Below, piece by piece: positions 8,319-42,964 of a stretch of 64,000 nucleotides of DNA (positions are counted from its first letter, which is position 1; every line of letters starts with the position of its first letter). Made by a program: the position numbers and the translations under genes. The notes beneath the pieces are model-generated. The model was not told where the DNA came from and did not search any database. It worked only from the letters and a program-made list of their open reading frames with translations. Source of the DNA: Pirellulales bacterium (GTDB lineage: Bacteria > Planctomycetota > Planctomycetia > Pirellulales > JALHPA01); NCBI GenBank assembly GCA_049840575.1, contig JASGKV010000010.1, positions 1,633 through 65,632 on the forward strand, read 5' to 3'.

Positions 8319-9170
8319 ATGTCGAAACCGCACGCCAATCGCCGGTCTCTCCGTCTGGTCGGAGCGTTCGTCGCCATGATCATGGCGTACGGCGTCGCCT
8401 CGGCCGATCAGGCGGAAGAAAAACGCGAAGCGGCGCGGATCAAACAAGCCGAGCAAGCGTCGACCAAGGCCAAGCAATCGGCCAACGACGCGGATCAAGC
8501 GTTCAAGCTCGCCGTGCGAAACGCGCGATCGGCCGAAGATCGGCGCGACGCCGCGTCCAAAGCGATCCAACGCACGCGGGACGAAGCCGAGCGCGCGTTG
8601 GGCGAATCGACCGGCTTGCCGGCGGCGATTCGCGACGTCGCCGCCGCCGATGCGGAATTCGAACGGATCGCCGCGCCGATTCGCGCGCGGGTGCGAAAAT
8701 CGGACGAGTACCTCCGCGCACAAGAAGCGGCGACTGTCGCGCGAGCCGAACGGGAACGCCTGACGGCCGACGTCGAACTCGACGACGCGGCGTTGGCCGC
8801 CTTGATTACGGAGACCGGAAAACTCCTGCGTCGTCCGGACGAACTCGAAACCGCCGCGATCAACGCCGACCCGACTGTCGCCGCGCAACGCAAGACGCTG
8901 GAAGCGGCCCAACGCCGCGCGGCGGAGTTGCGCGCGAAGGTTAAATCGCAAATCGACGATGCGCCCGGCTTGAAACGCGCCGTGGCCGAACTCCGAGACG
9001 CCGAGCAAGACCTGAACGCGAAACGGACCGAAGCGACGAAACGCCGCGCTGTCGCGCTCGCGCAACGAACGCAAGCGCAGCAAGCCGCGAATCATCTCGC
9101 CGACGTCAAATCAGCCGACCGCCGCGACGACGCGAACGACAATAAGAAAAACGCAAAGAAGAAAAAGTAA
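8319..9170 (+). CDS. Secreted coiled-coil protein, Ala/Arg/Glu-rich with a Lys-rich tail
   Basis: Start chosen at MSKPHANRRSLRLVGAFVAMIMAYGVASA (signal-peptide-like). The rest has heptad-like charged sequence and ends in KKNAKKKK. Confidence 0.6.
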   Translation: MSKPHANRRSLRLVGAFVAMIMAYGVASADQAEEKREAARIKQAEQASTKAKQSANDADQAFKLAVRNARSAEDRRDAASKAIQRTRDEAERALGESTGLPAAIRDVAAADAEFERIAAPIRARVRKSDEYLRAQEAATVARAERERLTADVELDDAALAALITETGKLLRRPDELETAAINADPTVAAQRKTLEAAQRRAAELRAKVKSQIDDAPGLKRAVAELRDAEQDLNAKRTEATKRRAVALAQRTQAQQAANHLADVKSADRRDDANDNKKNAKKKK

Positions 9171-9176
9171 GACAGC

Positions 9177-10763
<1,587 letters not shown>

Positions 10764-11132: not shown

Positions 11133-12280
11133 ATGCCGGATTTGCTACGCCAGGAAATCGCCGCCGCCGCGCACACGATCGTCGTCAAAGTCGGAACACG
11201 GGTGCTGACCGGACCGGACGGACGGCTGAATCAAGAACGAATCGCCGCGCTGACCGAAGAAATTCATCAAGTGATGCTAACCGGACGCAAGGTGGTCCTG
11301 GTCAGCTCCGGCGCGGTCGGCGCGGGGATGGGGCAATTGGGCCTGGAGAAACGCCCACGCGATTTGGCCCGCTTACAAGCGGTGGCCGCGGTCGGTCAAA
11401 CGTATCTCGTGCAGACCTACGACCGCGAATTTCGCCGCTTCGGTCGGCACGCAGCGCAAATTCTGTTGATCGCCGACGATCTGGATCATCGGACGCGTTA
11501 TTTGAACATCCGGAATACGATCCTGAATCTGTTGGAGCTGAACGCCGTCCCGATCGTCAACGAAAACGACACGGTCAGCGTCGAAGAACTCCGCACCACG
11601 TTCGGCGACAACGATCGCTTGGCCGCGATGCTGACCAACTTGATCCGCGCGCCGTTGCTCGTTCTGCTTTCGGACGTGCTGGGCTTGTACGACGGCGATC
11701 CCGCGCTGCCCGAGTCGAATATCGTGCATACGGTCCCGAAGCTCGACGAAAGCATCTGGGCGTTGGTCAAAGACAAGTTGACCGGGCTCAGCAAAGGGGG
11801 CATGGCCAGCAAGTTGGAAGCCGCGCGGATCGCGACGACTTCTGGCGAAAACGTGATCATTACCAGCGGCAAACAGCCCGGCGCGTTGGCCAAAATCGTG
11901 GCCGGCGAGGAAATCGGTACGCTGTTTTTGGCCCAAGGGGGCACGTTGTCGTCGTTCAAGCGTTGGTTAGGCTTCACCGCGCAGACGCGGGGCGTGTTGA
12001 CGTTGGACGACGGCGCGCGATGCGCGGTCGAACAAGACGGCCGCAGTCTGTTGGCGATCGGCGTGAAGACCGTCGCGGGCGACTTCAAAAAAGGGGACGT
12101 CGTTTCGCTGCGCGATGCGACCGGGTACGAGTTCGCCCGCGGACTTACGAATTACAATGCCGAAGATCTGACCAAGATTCGCGGCCTTCGCACCGAAGGC
12201 ATCGCCGCGGCGCTGGGCGCCCACCCCTACGACGAAGTGATTCATCGCGACAACTTGCGCGCACCCGCGTGGCCGAATAA
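11133..12280 (+). CDS. proB: Glutamate 5-kinase with PUA domain (3' end uncertain)
   Basis: VVKVGTRVLT, VSSGAVGAG, NENDTVS and the C-terminal PUA-like GDVVSLRD...ARGLTNY...VIHRDNL. As assembled there is no stop before the next gene. A stop at 12278-12280 is reached after a 1-nt shift. Confidence 0.85.
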
Positions 12281-37820: not shown

Positions 37821-37946
37821 GCGATCCGGTCGAAAACGTGGATGAGATTCCCTCTCTCCATCTAGGTGTAATCGAGTTTTCCGAATTGGCAATGAATTCG
37901 TAGCGAAGTGACGAAAGATTCGTCGAATCCAACAAGAATGATGCGT

Positions 37947-38429
37947 TTACGCAACAAACGCCAAATAATAAAAAGCGATTCCTGTGATGGCGGTCAACGC
38001 CATGCCATAGCCCGAAAGCATACCCAATCGCTTATGCGTGCGACTGTGCGGACCGGGCGTGGGAGGATCCGGAAATTTGCGATACGCCATCACGGTAACC
38101 AACACCCACAGCGCGAAAGTCGGTACGGCGAAACAGAGGTGCACGATCAGCACGCGCGTCACCGTGCCGGTTTCGTAATACGGCGAAGGGGCGGCGATCT
38201 CATGCCACTTGGTGAAGAAGCGCATATCGATCTCGAACGCCAGCACGGCGATCAGCAGAACGCCGCCGAGAAGCGTTCGCGCGGTTTTGTGCGCCGCGAA
38301 CTTTCGCTTTTTCGCCAAACCGATCGACCAAGCCAACGCCGGAATCGTAAGAAACATCGCGATAAATACGATGTCCAGCATCATCGACGCGGGTCGACTC
38401 GGCAGCAGATGATGCAAAAACCCCGGCAT
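37947..38429 (-). CDS. DUF420-like four-TM membrane protein
   Basis: 160 aa from the ATG at 38429. Four hydrophobic segments with a conserved-looking His pattern (AAHK, IVHLCFAVP, HKRLG...TG..FYY). The longer 313-aa ORF upstream overlaps the tRNA intron and is rejected. Confidence 0.5.
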   Translation of the reverse strand: MPGFLHHLLPSRPASMMLDIVFIAMFLTIPALAWSIGLAKKRKFAAHKTARTLLGGVLLIAVLAFEIDMRFFTKWHEIAAPSPYYETGTVTRVLIVHLCFAVPTFALWVLVTVMAYRKFPDPPTPGPHSRTHKRLGMLSGYGMALTAITGIAFYYLAFVA

Positions 38430-38655
38430 GAACCACGAACTCCCGACGACGACGCGCGCAGTCATGATAACGGAATCCGGCGAGACGACTGTCGAAATCC
38501 TCGCCGGCAAGATACACTGTGAGCCGACGATTCTAGCGAATCGTGCGACGTTTCCATACGGCGTCTTCCGATGTTGCGATCGGCATAGCCCGCGAATCGA
38601 TTCGGGTCGCCGCAACGCGCAAGATCGAATTATTGCGTCCGGAAACGACGTGCAA

Positions 38656-39036
38656 CCGGGTGTGGTGGAATGGCAGACACTAGGGACTTTACATGACGTG
38701 GAGCCGCCCGCGAGGAATCGCGGTGCGCGAATGTCGAGAATTGCCGGAATCTCCTGAGAGCCCTCGGACGACAGCGTGGTCGGCGACGACGAGCGCGAAC
38801 GTTTGAAAACGCGAGGGATTGGACAACCAGCAGCCGAGCGTCTCGCTTTCCCAAAGCGAGTCGAAGGTTCAGAGACTATGCACGACACGTCCTCTGTCGC
38901 GAAACGCGAACGGACGATGAGATAGTCCAGACGACGACCGAGAACGCCAGCGTTCGCGGCTCGGGGAAAGCCCAGAGGTCGTAAGAAAATCCCTTGAGGG
39001 GGAACCCTCGTGCGGGTTCGAGTCCCGCCACCCGGA
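38656..39036 (+). tRNA. trnL: tRNA-Leu(UAA) interrupted by a group I intron (exons 38656-38689 and 38986-39036)
   Basis: The joined exons give an 85-nt class II tRNA. Acceptor CCGGGTG/CACCCGG, D arm GTG-GAATGGCAGA-CAC, anticodon stem AGGGA/TCCCT, loop CTTAAAA, long variable arm GAGGG-GGAA-CCCTC, T arm GCGGG-TTCGAGT-CCCGC, discriminator A. No CCA is encoded. Confidence 0.85.
38690..38985 (+). ncRNA. Group I (IC3-like) intron in the anticodon loop of tRNA-Leu(UAA)
   Basis: Inserted after U34, the same site as cyanobacterial and plastid trnL introns. It ends in G. It contains CCTGAGAGCC (38753-38762) and GGTTCAGAGACTATGCACG (38866-38884), which resemble conserved core elements of known tRNA group I introns. 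It carries no ORF. Confidence 0.8.
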
Positions 39037-39062
39037 CTTCGTGAGCGGATGCTGAGCTGTCG

Positions 39063-39093
39063 GACGCGGGGAAAAGACTTTTTTCTCCGCGTC
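39063..39093. terminator. Hairpin between the convergent tRNA-Leu and mgtC (possible bidirectional terminator)
   Basis: GACGCGG...CCGCGTC stem enclosing an A-run and T-run (GGAAAAGACTTTTTTCT). Confidence 0.5.
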
Positions 39094-39112
39094 GCAGACT
39101 CTTCGCGTCCTC

Positions 39113-39599
39113 TTAGCCCCGCCCGCTCGGCAACCGTTTCTCAAGCAGCGCCGGGACGACCCTAAGAATCAGCAGCGCCAAAACGGTCGCCAAAATGGCC
39201 GAGGCGTCGCGACCCAAGCCGACCGCGACCCCGATCGCCGCGGTCAACCAAATTCCGGCGGCGGTCGTCAGCCCTTGAACGCGATCTTCGTCGTCGCCTT
39301 TCACGATCGCCCCCGCGCCTAAAAAGCCGATCCCGGCGATCAAACCTTGCAGAACTCGGCCGATCGAATCGTCGGTAAAGCCGAGTTGCTTAGGGACGAG
39401 CATAAAGAACGCCGCGCCGAGCAGCGACGAACATGTGCGTGCGCAATCCGGCGGCTTTGCCTTTGACCTCGCGATCGTATCCCAACACGCCACCCAAGAA
39501 TGCGGCCAGCGTCATTCGAAACACCAACCGTGTCGTCTCCGCCGCATCGGGCAGATCGGACAGTTCCGAACGCAACGTCTCGACGATCTCGGTAAACAC
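39113..39599 (-). CDS. mgtC: MgtC/SapB-family membrane protein (frame break near 39430)
   Basis: FLGGVLGYDREVKGKAAGLRTH, then LLGAAFFML, GIGFLGAGAI and TAAGIWLTAAIGVAVG. Confidence 0.85.
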
Positions 39600-40586: not shown

Positions 40587-42964
40587 TCACGATCGCTTGC
40601 TCGACGGCTCGCTTGCGGATTTCTCGCGTGCAACGTTCGTACTCGAATTCGCGAATTTGCGCTCTAGGTCGGTCAGCGTCATCAAAATCCGTTCGCCGGT
40701 CGCAGGCATGGCGAAACGCGGGATTTCCCCCGGCGCGACGTATGAAAGCGCGTTCTTCACGGCCGCCCAGGCGGCGATTCCCAGCGGCAACGGCGGTTCG
40801 CCGACCGCTTTCGAGCGTTTGACGCCGACATGGTTGTCCGGGTTGTCGAAAAACCTGCAACGGAAATCGGTCGGCAAATCGCCGATGTTAGGAATTTTAT
40901 ACGTGGTCGGCGAATGCGAGAGCAGCGTCCCCTTTGCGTCGTACTTCAATTCCTCGGCGGTCACCCAGCCCATCCCTTGAATAAAGCCGCCTACGACTTG
41001 TCCGCGATCGATACCGGGATTAATGGGAATACCGACGTCCATCAGCAGGTCGACGCGCGGCACGCTCAACTCGCCGGTGAAGCGATCGATCTCGACCTCG
41101 ACGACCGCAGCGCCGTTGGTGTAATACAAAAACGGCGTCCCCTTGCCCGTTTCGCGGTTCAAGTCGACGCCCGGCGTGACGTAGAACCCTCGCTCGCCCA
41201 ACGAGACGCGCTCGAAGTAGGCCTTCTTCACCAGTTCGACAAACGTCGTTCGCCGATCGGGTGCGCGTTCGTCCCAGACTTGCCCAGCGGCGAAGCGGAC
41301 GTGTGTGGGCGACGCCGGAATGCCGCGCGACGCATCGGCGAATTGGCCGGCCGCGAAATCGGCCAAACGACCGCGAATTCGCCCCGTGGCGTCGAGCGCG
41401 GCCATGCCGTTGAGATCGGTCCCGCACGACGCGGCGGTCGGACTGGTGTTGTTGTTTTTCTCGGTGCTGGTCGTCCCGACGACGACCGACGCGTACGGAA
41501 TGCCCAGGTCGTCGGCCACCAATCGGCGCACGCGGGTGTGCACGCCCTGCCCCATCTCGGTTCCGCCGTGACTGACCATCACCGTGCCGTCGAGATAGAC
41601 GTTGACCAACGCGTTGGCTTGATTCAGCGTTCGCTTGGTGAACGAGATGCCGAACTTAACGGCCGTCATCGCAAGACCATGCAGTAGTAGCACGCAATCG
41701 CGCATTCAGAGCGTGGATTTCCGCCCGTCGGCGATCGTATTCACTCTCCGCGCAGCTCGCCAAGTAACTTCGGCAGGACGTTGTTGCGGAAGATTTGCCC
41801 GTACGGCGTGGTGTTGCGTTCGGTGACGCCGTATAAATTCGCTTCGCGCACGTCGTAGGCGTCTTTGCCTAGGCGCATCGCGATCTCTTCCAAAATGTTC
41901 TCGATGCAGGCGATTCCCTGCGGCCCTCCGAAGCCGCGGAACGCGGTGTTCGACGGCAAATTCGTTTTGCAAATCCGACCTGTGATTCGCGCGTCGGGCA
42001 GATAGTACGCGTTGTCCGAATGCAACATCGCCCGCTCGAGCACCGACGTCGAAAGGTCGGTCGTAGCATCCTCCGTTAGAGTACAGGTCCAACTTCAACG
42101 CGGTCAGCTTGCCGTCGTAGTCGAAACCGACTTTGTATCGTCCCTTGAACGGATGACGCTTGCCGGTGATCGTCATGTCTGTGTCGTGATCCAGCACGAT
42201 CCGCGCGGGCCGACCCGTGCGTTGCGCGACGAGCGCCGCCATCGCGGCGGGCTGAGCGGCTTGCGTTTCCTTTCCGCCGAAGCCCCCGCCCATCCGTTTG
42301 CATTGAACGATGACCTGATTGAAGCCGATTCCCAGCACTTCGGCGACGACGGCCTGGACTTCGCTCGGATGCTGGGTCGACGAGAGAATCGTCAGAGCCC
42401 CTTGCTCGTCCGGGTAGGCCAAGGCGGCCATCGATTCGAGATAAAAATGCTCTTGCCCGCCGATGTCGAGTTCGCCTTCCAGCGTGTGTCGCGCAGCGGC
42501 GAAACCGGCGGCGACGTCGCCCGTTTCGATGATGCGTAACGGCCCGAGAAAATCGCCGGCGGCGATCGCTTCGTCGATGGTGAAGCGCGGCGGCAGCGGT
42601 TCGATGTCGGCGGTGATCAGCCGCTTGGCCGCTAACGCGGCGGCGCGAGTTTCGGCGACCACGATGGCCAACGGTTCGCCGACGAAACGCACGACGTCTT
42701 GCGCCAACAAGCAATCGTCCGGCACGATCGGACCGAACGTGTTGTGGCCCGGCACGTCGGTCGAGGTCAGCACGCAGACTACTCCCGGCGCCGCGCGGGC
42801 GGCTTCGAGATGAAGCATTTGACGCGGCCATGCGCGACGGGCGACCCGAACAGTTCGAGAAAAAGTTCGCCGCGACGCGGAGGAATGTCGTCGATGTAGG
42901 TCGAACGACCGGCGACGTGCGTCACGGCCGAATCATGCGGAAGATCGGCGCCGACGGCGTTCAT
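40587..42964 (-). CDS. xdhB: Xanthine dehydrogenase molybdopterin-binding subunit (at least three frame breaks near 42810, 42050 and 41720)
   Basis: HDSAVTHVAGRSTYIDDIP, GGQEHFYLE, RMGGGFGGKE, AFRGFGGPQG, GGTEMGQG and a C-terminal SKAVGEPP. Its start overlaps the xdhA stop (ATGA at 42961-42964). Confidence 0.9.

Follow-up and report, generated by a model that had tools for sequence, protein, structure and literature searches.

Introduction

Intron-split tRNA genes are spread across bacterial phyla: Williams 2020 (bioRxiv 10.1101/2020.01.27.920355) counts 5292, sorts them into 21 site classes, four of them classical and Leu.3Ug among these four, and has in its seed alignment Mle24.Lys.3Ug, a member of the lineage described below. 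Split tRNA-Leu-TAA genes have also been described in Beggiatoa 'BOGUAY' and Candidatus Thiomargarita nelsonii, according to Flood 2016 (PMC4853749), which reports MacGregor 2013. Here we analyse a 64-kilobase (kb) stretch of a Pirellulales genome (contig JASGKV010000010.1 of assembly GCA_049840575.1; hereafter the window), in which a tRNA-Leu(UAA) gene is split by a group I intron in its anticodon loop. The gene is interrupted between U34 and A35 by an intron without an open reading frame (ORF) and outside the cyanobacterial and plastid IC3 group; we think it likely that the gene is functional and that this intron, from a Leu-specific sub-clade, was gained by homing.

Group I introns at the Leu site are already published from outside cyanobacteria, and a public Kuenenia assembly has one at a neighbouring position. 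A tRNA-Leu(UAA) intron in a gamma-proteobacterium was also reportedly described by Vepritskiy et al. in 2002. A preliminary description of the present locus had regarded the site as characteristic of cyanobacteria and plastids; the cases in Williams 2020 and in Gammaproteobacteria, which lie across phyla, contradict this, and our own scans add contigs labelled Alphaproteobacteria, Gemella and Sumerlaeota together with many phage-like ones. The further suggestion that a copy in a different phylum would bear on the age of the cyanobacterial intron loses most of its force; what the copy does show is that a second lineage uses U34/A35.

A split tRNA-Leu(UAA) gene missed by standard detectors

The split gene and its group I intron are real. 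Once joined, the two exons form an 85-nucleotide (nt) tRNA-Leu(UAA), by exact string match and by ARAGORN, and the insert of 296 nt between them ends in G; the preliminary description had given both exon coordinates exactly (Table 1). Its reading of the gene as a class II tRNA-Leu(UAA) with a group I intron inserted after U34 is likewise borne out, by ARAGORN on the spliced sequence and by the core fold described below. The predicted spliced junction reads ...GGGACUU/AAAAUCCC..., and the variable arm of the mature tRNA is GAGGGGGAACCCUC.

Neither standard detector reports the locus by default. ARAGORN called no tRNA in the raw 64-kb window and called tRNA-Leu(UAA) when the 296 nt were excised. 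Its intron mode placed a junction at CTT/AAAA with an intron of 296, a mode whose junction placement is unreliable and which calls Lys(UUU) and Arg(UCU) genes Asn, SeC or Stop; we replaced it with a brute-force junction search that needs U(-1), a terminal omega-G, U33, R37 and an anticodon stem of 5 base pairs (bp). The Rfam model RF00028 (Intron_gpI) had no match in the whole window at its gathering score (50 bits), because the copy scores 31.7 bits. In a permissive scan of 601 nt (38550-39150), a check of the kind that the preliminary description had proposed, this score was nonetheless significant (E 2.9e-6) and spanned the full model (positions 1-253 on 38680-38950). The locus thus lies under the default thresholds of both tools, and the only tRNA-Leu(UAA) visible in the window is overlooked in annotation, so that the genome would seem to lack a tRNA for UUA.

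The intron folds as a group I ribozyme

Alignment A1 comprises 25 sequences, the window intron and 24 relatives drawn from the genome and metagenome collections. From it RNAalifold returned the paired segments P3 and P4, a P5 that is greatly extended, P6/P6a, P8 and a hairpin in P9, and 37 of the 51 pairs showed compensatory changes; P1, P7 and P9 were placed by hand on this consensus before pairs were counted. Standard pairs filled 95.0% of cells, vs 30-39% with partners slid by 1-3 columns, and double-sided changes occurred in 38 of 63 pairs. The core helices P3-P8, the P3/P7 pseudoknot and the covariation expected of a group I intron were all found, and the window copy retains every helix (Table 1).

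The splice-site wobble that the preliminary description had singled out for checking is present as U38689•G38701: U(-1)•G occurs in 25/25 aligned sequences, with the other P1 pairs counted being U-A in 25/25 and C-G in 24/25. In the window, G38684-G38685 can additionally pair with C38704-C38705 with A38686 bulged, and the P1 loop is AUGAC. The P2 region of A1 was too variable for pair counts. In the P5 domain (helices 6-8), all 15 pairs of helices 6 and 8 show compensatory changes. P7 is invariant across the 25 sequences (6/6 pairs) and, with its bulged A38873, would form the guanosine-binding helix; this G-site assignment is based on what we take to be a geometry resembling that of the Tetrahymena P7. 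P9 changed from CUAC/GUAG in relatives to CGAC/GUCG in the window, a compensatory change private to this copy, and P9b covaries in the family (5/5 pairs). The anticodon stem AGGGA/UCCCU also covaries in the family. The terminal omega-G is G38985, a boundary set independently by intron-less orthologues.

A lineage distinct from cyanobacterial and plastid introns

The preliminary description had likened the insert to the cyanobacterial and plastid trnL intron, a likeness that holds for the insertion site and fails for the lineage. With profile hidden Markov models (nhmmer), the window intron scored, over its full length, 144 bits against 13 Leu-hosted relatives and 162 bits against all 24; against 10 Lys-hosted relatives it scored 118 bits. 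Against 8 IC3 tRNA-intron seeds, including the Leu.3Ug seeds Ncf2 and Sel1, it scored 8.3 bits, over P7-P9 only; reciprocally, the IC3 seeds reached only 17-35 bits on the lineage profile. The contrast between 8.3 and 144-162 bits therefore excludes the cyanobacterial and plastid lineage as source.

Architecture separates the two groups as well. Where IC3 introns are compact, with a short P5, AAAUUCGGGGAA in J3/4-P4 and GGUGUAGAGACUAGACGG, the window intron has a P5 extension of ~70 nt, GAGAAUUGCCGGAA and GGUUCAGAGACUAUGCACG; its J6/7 reads UCA vs GUA in IC3, and its J3/4-P4 reads AAUUGC vs AAAUUCGG. Its core resembles the Williams 2020 seed Mle24.Lys.3Ug and not the Leu.3Ug seeds. Of two motif matches to plastid and cyanobacterial core segments proposed earlier, GGUUCAGAGACUAUGCACG does correspond to J6/7-P7-P3'. 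The other, CCUGAGAGCC (38753-38762), turned out to fall on the 5' side of P5 and of the P5 extension, and it is GGACAACCAGCAGCC at 38821-38835 that corresponds to the plastid GGCAAUCCUGAGCC / CCUGAGCC segment (P5'/P4'/P6). Judged by these sequence features, the window intron is a member of a separate bacterial lineage of tRNA introns, marked by UCAGAGACUA in J6/7-P7 and a long P5 extension.

Within this lineage, introns sort by the tRNA that hosts them. A neighbour-joining (NJ) tree of 217 intron-only columns (500 bootstrap replicates) split Leu-type from Lys-type introns with 99.4% bootstrap support and placed the window intron inside the Leu clade, nearest to L136 and L145 (p-distance 0.26-0.27); its nearest neighbours were Leu-type in 492/500 replicates. 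Leu-hosted introns share CAGCAGCCGAG, GGUUCAGAGACUA and a terminal GUAAG, which Lys-hosted introns are without; the window carries CAGCAGCCGAG, AAGGUUCAGAGACUAUGCACG and terminal GUAAG, and the three motifs that, along with clustering on intron-only columns, mark the sub-clade (CAGCAGCCGAG, GGUUCAGAGACUA and AUAGUCCAGAC) are all present. This Leu-specific sub-clade of the extended-P5 'UCAGAGACUA' lineage is a group defined in the present analysis. Clustering by host tRNA rather than host phylum argues for site-specific homing and not for a move from a planctomycete Lys gene. Planctomycete Lys introns, which head the raw BLAST ranking because of shared high guanine-plus-cytosine (GC) content, were rejected as closest relatives by the profile scores and the core-column tree. 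Together, these comparisons show the U34/A35 site of tRNA-Leu(UAA) to be used by two apparently unrelated group I lineages.

The site is empty in syntenic relatives

The divergent arrangement of tRNA-Leu(UAA) and a gene for a DUF420 membrane protein is common to the window and four Pirellulales-like relatives, L300 (Pirellulales metagenome-assembled genome (MAG) GCA_033762255.1), L308, L309 and L310. In all four the tRNA gene is uninterrupted. These orthologues match the spliced window tRNA at 75-80 of 85 positions, and all read ...GGGACUUAAAAUCCC... across the CUU/AAAA junction, which fixes the splice sites to the nucleotide. Differences are confined to paired positions in the acceptor stem, variable arm and T stem, an indication that the exons are evolving as a tRNA; the preliminary description had named conservation of the exon pair in related genomes as decisive, and it was found. 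Synteny around DUF420 was not kept in L301, L303 and L307, and L304-L306 and L311, whose upstream sequence is too short to show the tRNA site, were left out of the comparison.

The window lineage thus carries an intron that none of these sampled relatives has, most likely through a lineage-specific gain and not by inheritance. The locus provides a clean comparison of occupied and empty sites inside one bacterial order. That the genome is a planctomycete's, as surmised earlier, agrees with both the DUF420 protein and the tRNA, which are closest to those of Pirellulales. The closest named DUF420 homologues are from Pirellulales/Pirellulaceae MAGs (56-58% identity) and Lignipirellula (51%), with the closest overall at 60-64%, affinities that support a planctomycete origin.

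Distribution across genomes, metagenomes and viral contigs

We scanned one genome per GTDB species with the pattern TCAGAGACTA-N(25-55)-ATAGTCCAGAC, which returned at least 120 loci, a sample and not a census. Junction calls resolved 80 of these, leaving about a third without a call. The phyla among the matches listed include Planctomycetota, Omnitrophota, Actinomycetota (Agromyces, Microbacterium), Acidobacteriota, Chloroflexota, Elusimicrobiota, Bacillota and others. The hosts among the same matches were mostly Lys(UUU) at CUU/UUAA (42/80) and Arg(UCU) at CUU/CUAA (24/80), followed by Lys(CUU) (8/80) and Val(UAC) (2/80). Leu(UAA) at CUU/AAAA accounted for 3/80 (L035, L075 and L109, labelled Sumerlaeota, Alphaproteobacteria and Gemella) and Leu(UAA) at CU/UAAAA for 1/80 (L027, Candidatus Kuenenia stuttgartiensis, a planctomycete). 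The 21 Planctomycetota loci among the matches listed comprise 13 in Lys(UUU), 5 in Arg(UCU), the Kuenenia locus and 2 without a call; none of the 21 is in Leu at U34/A35.

A metagenome scan with a Leu signature pattern, which contains no exon bases, gave 60 contigs, 36 resolved and 24 not: the resolved hosts were Leu(UAA) at CUU/AAAA (29), Leu(UAG) (5), Leu at CU/UAAAA (1) and Lys(UUU) (1). The general pattern matched 119 IMG/VR viral contigs, of which 34 could be resolved, with 86 matches left without a call. The viral hosts among these 34 were Leu(UAA) at the same site (19), Leu(UAG) (5), Leu at position 2 (3), Lys(UUU) (5), Lys(CUU) (1) and Thr(UGU) (1). Loci without a call in all three collections may lie in hosts other than tRNA genes or at contig ends.

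The Kuenenia locus (L027:~1370-1680, MAG contig CAMBEP010000122.1) is from an anammox planctomycete and holds a 225-nt intron at CU/UAAAA with the same P7 core; its position-2 class recurs in L175 and in three viral contigs (L206, L218 and L284). Many Planctomycetota, chiefly Isosphaeraceae, carry related introns of 280-337 nt in tRNA-Lys(UUU) (L024, L029, L033, L036, L041 (Singulisphaera), L045, L051, L067 (Paludisphaera soli JC670), L071, L079, L094, L102 and L113) or introns in tRNA-Arg(UCU) (L061, L065, L078, L101 and L119). RF00028 had no match at E<=0.001 in either of the two loci tested, L024 and L113, so such planctomycete tRNA genes probably escape routine annotation. In L008, from a MAG labelled Alphaproteobacteria (WGNJ01000027.1), both the intron and the exons of tRNA-Lys(UUU) cluster with their Planctomycetaceae counterparts (L102) and not with other proteobacterial sequences, which could reflect either mis-binning of the contig or transfer of the intron.

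Endonuclease genes and phage-like tRNA arrays

Members of the family fall into two size classes, 256-360 nt and ~640-800 nt, and ORF-less members (264-333 nt) are common. The long members (642-803 nt) encode a protein of 190-236 amino acids (aa) matching Pfam HNH_3 (1e-9 for L178, 2.7e-8 for L188). This ORF, which is not a defining trait, is absent from the 296-nt window intron. It begins near P1/P2 and reads through the ribozyme core, so that core segments double as peptide codons: ENCWN is GAGAAUUGCUGGAA (J3/4-P4), EIGQSAAEP the P5'-P4'-P6 strand, GSETMH GGUUCAGAGACUAUGCAC (J6/7-P7) and DDIVQTT GAUGAUAUAGUCCAGACUAC (J8/7-P7'). The overlap offers a system for the study of sequence that serves as both ribozyme and protein-coding region.

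HNH-coding versions of 640-800 nt occur in tRNA-Leu(UAA)/(UAG) genes of viral and metagenome contigs (L178, L188, L201, the L230:9562 region, L121 and L127); in L178 the intron-internal ORF lies at 8695-9360 (-). The best matches to the window intron are L178 (72% over 243 nt) and L136 (66% over 280 nt), and both of these introns sit in arrays of dispersed tRNA genes, next to ORFs with matches to phage orthologous groups (PHROG). In a phage-like tRNA array of the 184-kb viral contig L230 (IMGVR_UViG_3300021181_000006), two split tRNAs lie ~2 kb apart: a Leu(UAA) at 9562-9611 with an HNH ORF in a 747-nt intron, and a Thr(UGU) at 11583-11634 with a PD-(D/E)XK ORF (PF11645, 2.5e-15) in a 671-nt intron. 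According to Hausner et al. 2014, all phage introns then known were in protein-coding genes, despite the many phage tRNA genes.

Read jointly, these observations allow a broader proposal, which we put forward tentatively and rate at somewhat under an even chance: a second, unrelated lineage, carried chiefly by large phages in their tRNA arrays and with its HNH frame running through the ribozyme core, would independently target U34/A35 and would seed copies without the ORF into the tRNA-Leu genes of chromosomes from distant phyla, the Pirellulales copy being one landing. If so, phage tRNA genes would be both reservoir and vector of tRNA introns, and occupancy of the Leu site alone would be weak evidence for antiquity. 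A Leu clade common to phage-like arrays and chromosomes provides a testable route for the horizontal spread of tRNA introns.

Splicing, origin and alternative explanations

From the conserved core and the intact, compensating exons we infer that the intron self-splices. The precursor would be transcribed through exon, intron and exon, and the intron would fold into P1-P9. Exogenous guanosine bound in P7 would then attack after U38689, held in the P1 U•G wobble; the terminal G38985 would next take the G site, and the freed 5' exon would attack after G38985. Ligation of CUU to AAAA would restore a 7-nt anticodon loop, and the anticodon stem of 5 bp would probably keep the exons together, as it does in the Anabaena pre-tRNA. 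As to origin, the donor would have belonged to the same sub-clade, specialised for tRNA-Leu(UAA)/(UAG), whose ORF-containing members are HNH-coding and common in phage-like tRNA arrays. The most likely entry into the chromosomal gene would be endonuclease-driven homing from such a Leu-type donor, perhaps phage-borne, after which the ORF would have been lost, if it was ever present, and the composition would have drifted to that of the host. Both the route and the direction of transfer are put forward here from sequence comparison, as the most plausible course.

Several observations weigh against a functional gene acquired in this way. The window copy shows the most departures from the consensus fold of any Leu-type member. 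P4 contains a C38745•A38829 mismatch, unique among the 25 sequences, where 24/24 relatives have U-A, although the neighbouring pair is G-C in the window (G38747-C38827) vs G•U in relatives; P6a holds one U•U; and L9b is GAAAG/AAAG, not the family's GAAA tetraloop. Inspection of 38690-38701 found beside the guide sequence no convincing P10 complement to AAAAUCC, a role for which the anticodon stem may stand in. The RF00028 score not only falls short of the gathering threshold, it is the lowest among the Leu-type introns tested, five relatives of which reach 52.8-70.2 bits. As regards origin, the intron's GC content (0.60) is that of its flanks (0.57-0.63), and even the closest relative found shares only about 72-74% identity with it; these values point to no recent donor and, together with the missing ORF, suggest instead an old, site-specific acquisition. 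Loss in four relatives instead of gain in one is formally possible, taxon labels of MAG bins can be wrong, and further planctomycete Leu.3Ug copies may lie outside the matches listed. The view is also limited to 64 kb of the genome, elsewhere in which a second, intact tRNA-Leu(UAA) is possible.

The structural points could be read as signs that the intron, while a true member of its lineage, is decaying, poorly active or inactive, the gene then being a tRNA pseudogene and UUA/UUG being read by another tRNA-Leu(UAA) or by tRNA-Leu(CAA). The low Rfam score, the C•A in an otherwise invariant P4, the U•U in P6a, an irregular L9b where the relatives' GAAA tetraloop would normally make a tertiary contact, the absent endonuclease ORF and the 64-kb view would all fit such decay. 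We nevertheless consider it unlikely, though the most serious of the alternatives. The exons are undecayed, with a full cloverleaf and with differences from orthologues only at compensated, paired positions; the helices and junction sequences of the catalytic core are all kept, among them P3, P7 including the bulged A, J8/7 and the terminal omega-G; and the private double change in P9 is compensatory. The Williams seed Yba21.fMet.5Ug has the same P4 combination, UUGCCGG...UCAGCAG, and ORF-less members of the family are common.

A functional gene gained by homing also has to be set against two other origins. That the insert is the cyanobacterial or plastid trnL(UAA) intron itself, vertically ancient or transferred from cyanobacteria, would account for the shared U34/A35 site (CUU/AAAA), for nearly identical flanking exon bases and for local matches of universal core motifs (J6/7-P7, P7', the P9 GNRA hairpin and the terminal ..UAAG) to Ncf2.Leu.3Ug and Sel1.Leu.3Ug. 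We regard this as very improbable: the exon similarity reflects conservation of tRNA-Leu(UAA) and not intron ancestry, one of the two motif correspondences maps to a non-homologous element, the intron is absent in four relatives, and both the profile scores in either direction and the architecture (P5 extension, J6/7 and J3/4-P4) point elsewhere. Least probable of all, in our judgement, is a move by reverse splicing at another CUU site, without any Leu-type donor, the source being a tRNA-Lys(UUU) or tRNA-Arg(UCU) gene of the same genome or of another planctomycete. Planctomycetes do commonly hold related introns in these genes with the same CUU 5' exon end, and their GC-rich Lys introns lead by raw BLAST score, a ranking explained by the high GC in common; yet the bootstrap support for the Leu-type grouping, the Leu-type nearest neighbours, the full set of Leu-type signatures and the higher Leu than Lys profile score all contradict such a move.

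Features of the locus and neighbouring genes

Table 1. Coordinates of the split tRNA-Leu(UAA) gene, its intron helices and adjacent features in the window
Feature	Coordinates	Strand	Description
5' exon	38656..38689	+	acceptor 5' strand, D arm, anticodon stem 5' strand, C32-U33-U34; 34/34 nt identical to the L300 intron-less orthologue
ORF-less group I intron	38690..38985	+	296 nt, GC 0.60, omega-G 38985; RF00028 31.7 bits
3' exon	38986..39036	+	A35-A36-A37-A38, anticodon stem 3' strand, long variable arm, T arm, acceptor 3' strand; discriminator A; CCA unencoded
P1	38684..38705	+	C38687-U-U38689 and U-A-C38692 pair with G38698-U-G-G-A-G38703; RNAfold of 38683-38732
P2	38706..38726	+	hairpin of 8 bp, one bulged U, GGAA (GNRA) tetraloop 38714-38717; RNAfold
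P3 5' strand	38732..38736	+	UGUCG pairs with CGACA 38883-38887; double changes in 4/5 pairs, 99% of cells paired
P4 5' strand	38742..38747	+	UGCCGG pairs with 38827-38832
P5 and extension	38752..38823	+	~70-nt extended P5 domain (CCUGAGAGCC ... GGAUUGG), two internal helices
P6/P6a	38833..38868	+	P6 38833-38835 with 38866-38868; P6a 38839-38842 with 38860-38863
P7 5' strand	38872..38878	+	GAGACUA, bulged A38873; pairs with UAGUCC 38923-38928; pseudoknot with P3
P8	38888..38916	+	38888-38891 with 38913-38916, stem-loop extended inside; double changes in 3/4 pairs, 100% of cells paired
P9	38931..38982	+	ACGAC 38931-38935 with GUCGU 38978-38982; encloses P9a 38942-38955 and P9b 38960-38977
DUF420 membrane-protein gene	37947..38465	-	Pfam PF04238; 172 aa; divergent from tRNA; conserved neighbour used for synteny
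Strong hairpin	39047..39110	+	between tRNA 3' end and convergent MgtC-family gene (39113-39493, -)

A 313-aa ORF running across the locus had been dismissed as spurious in the preliminary description. This is true of its N-terminal extension only, the C-terminal 172 aa being the real DUF420 gene. Two long ORFs had no family match: 37908-38522 (+) lies opposite the DUF420 gene, and 38466-38888 (-) extends DUF420 over the 5' exon and half the intron. Both are typical high-GC spurious ORFs, which could mislead gene callers.

Downstream of the tRNA, the hairpin (-38.1 kcal/mol, z -4.4, with 0/200 shuffles equally stable) is likely a transcription terminator, predicted to serve the tRNA, the MgtC-family gene or both; a consensus terminator scan omitted it because it has no T-tract. 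Farther away, at 40587-42818 (-), a molybdopterin subunit of the xanthine dehydrogenase family is encoded by two abutting in-frame ORFs, split at 41703-41708 by one TGA with an ATG directly after it (...CTC TGA ATG CGC...). The upstream part comprises Ald_Xan_dh_C and a truncated MoCoBD_1, the downstream part MoCoBD_2; the split could be a sequencing error, a pseudogene, a true split gene or a recoded stop.

Comparison with known systems

A literature search, whose reach did not include the phylum counts of Williams 2020, found no paper describing a planctomycete tRNA-Leu intron. By site the window intron belongs to Leu.3Ug: the anticodon loop is interrupted at position 3, U(-1) and omega-G are both present, and the host isoacceptor is the same. 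In Williams 2020 that class is defined by site only; its named exemplars (Nostoc azollae and the seeds Ncf2 and Sel1) represent the compact IC3 type, and the window intron is of another sequence lineage. The cyanobacterial and plastid trnL(UAA) IC3 intron (Xu et al. 1990; Kuhsel et al. 1990; both cited by Hausner 2014) occupies the same gene and position, within the same anticodon stem, and the same chemistry is expected of both. The two nonetheless have no detectable homology beyond the universal core: the window intron differs in J3/4, J6/7 and P6 and has its P5 extension, and its relatives are often HNH-coding.

The same overall lineage includes the Williams 2020 seed Mle24.Lys.3Ug and the Lys(UUU) introns of Microbacterium/Agromyces and Isosphaeraceae from our scans, which share the UCAGAGACUA...AUAGUCCAGAC core, the CCUGAGAGCC...GGAUUGG P5 extension, the P9 GNRA hairpin and insertion after CUU. 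They differ in host (Lys UUU, CUU/UUAA), form a separate clade and carry the P6 and J6/7 signatures CAGCAGGCAAG/GCCUCAGAGACUA. The Beggiatoa and Thiomargarita genes are, like ours, non-cyanobacterial tRNA-Leu(UAA) genes missed in annotation through a putative group I intron, though from another phylum, as Gammaproteobacteria; the likeness follows their published description and not their sequence. The Azoarcus pre-tRNA-Ile intron (IC3), a small ORF-less anticodon-loop intron with GNRA loops in L2 and L9, is the mechanistic model for splicing; it differs in tRNA and position (Ile2.5Ug), has a compact core without a P5 extension and scores 17 bits on the lineage profile. Compared with these systems, the present locus makes a modest addition: a second lineage at the classical Leu site, a contrast of occupied and empty sites in Pirellulales, and a link to endonuclease-bearing introns in phage-like arrays.

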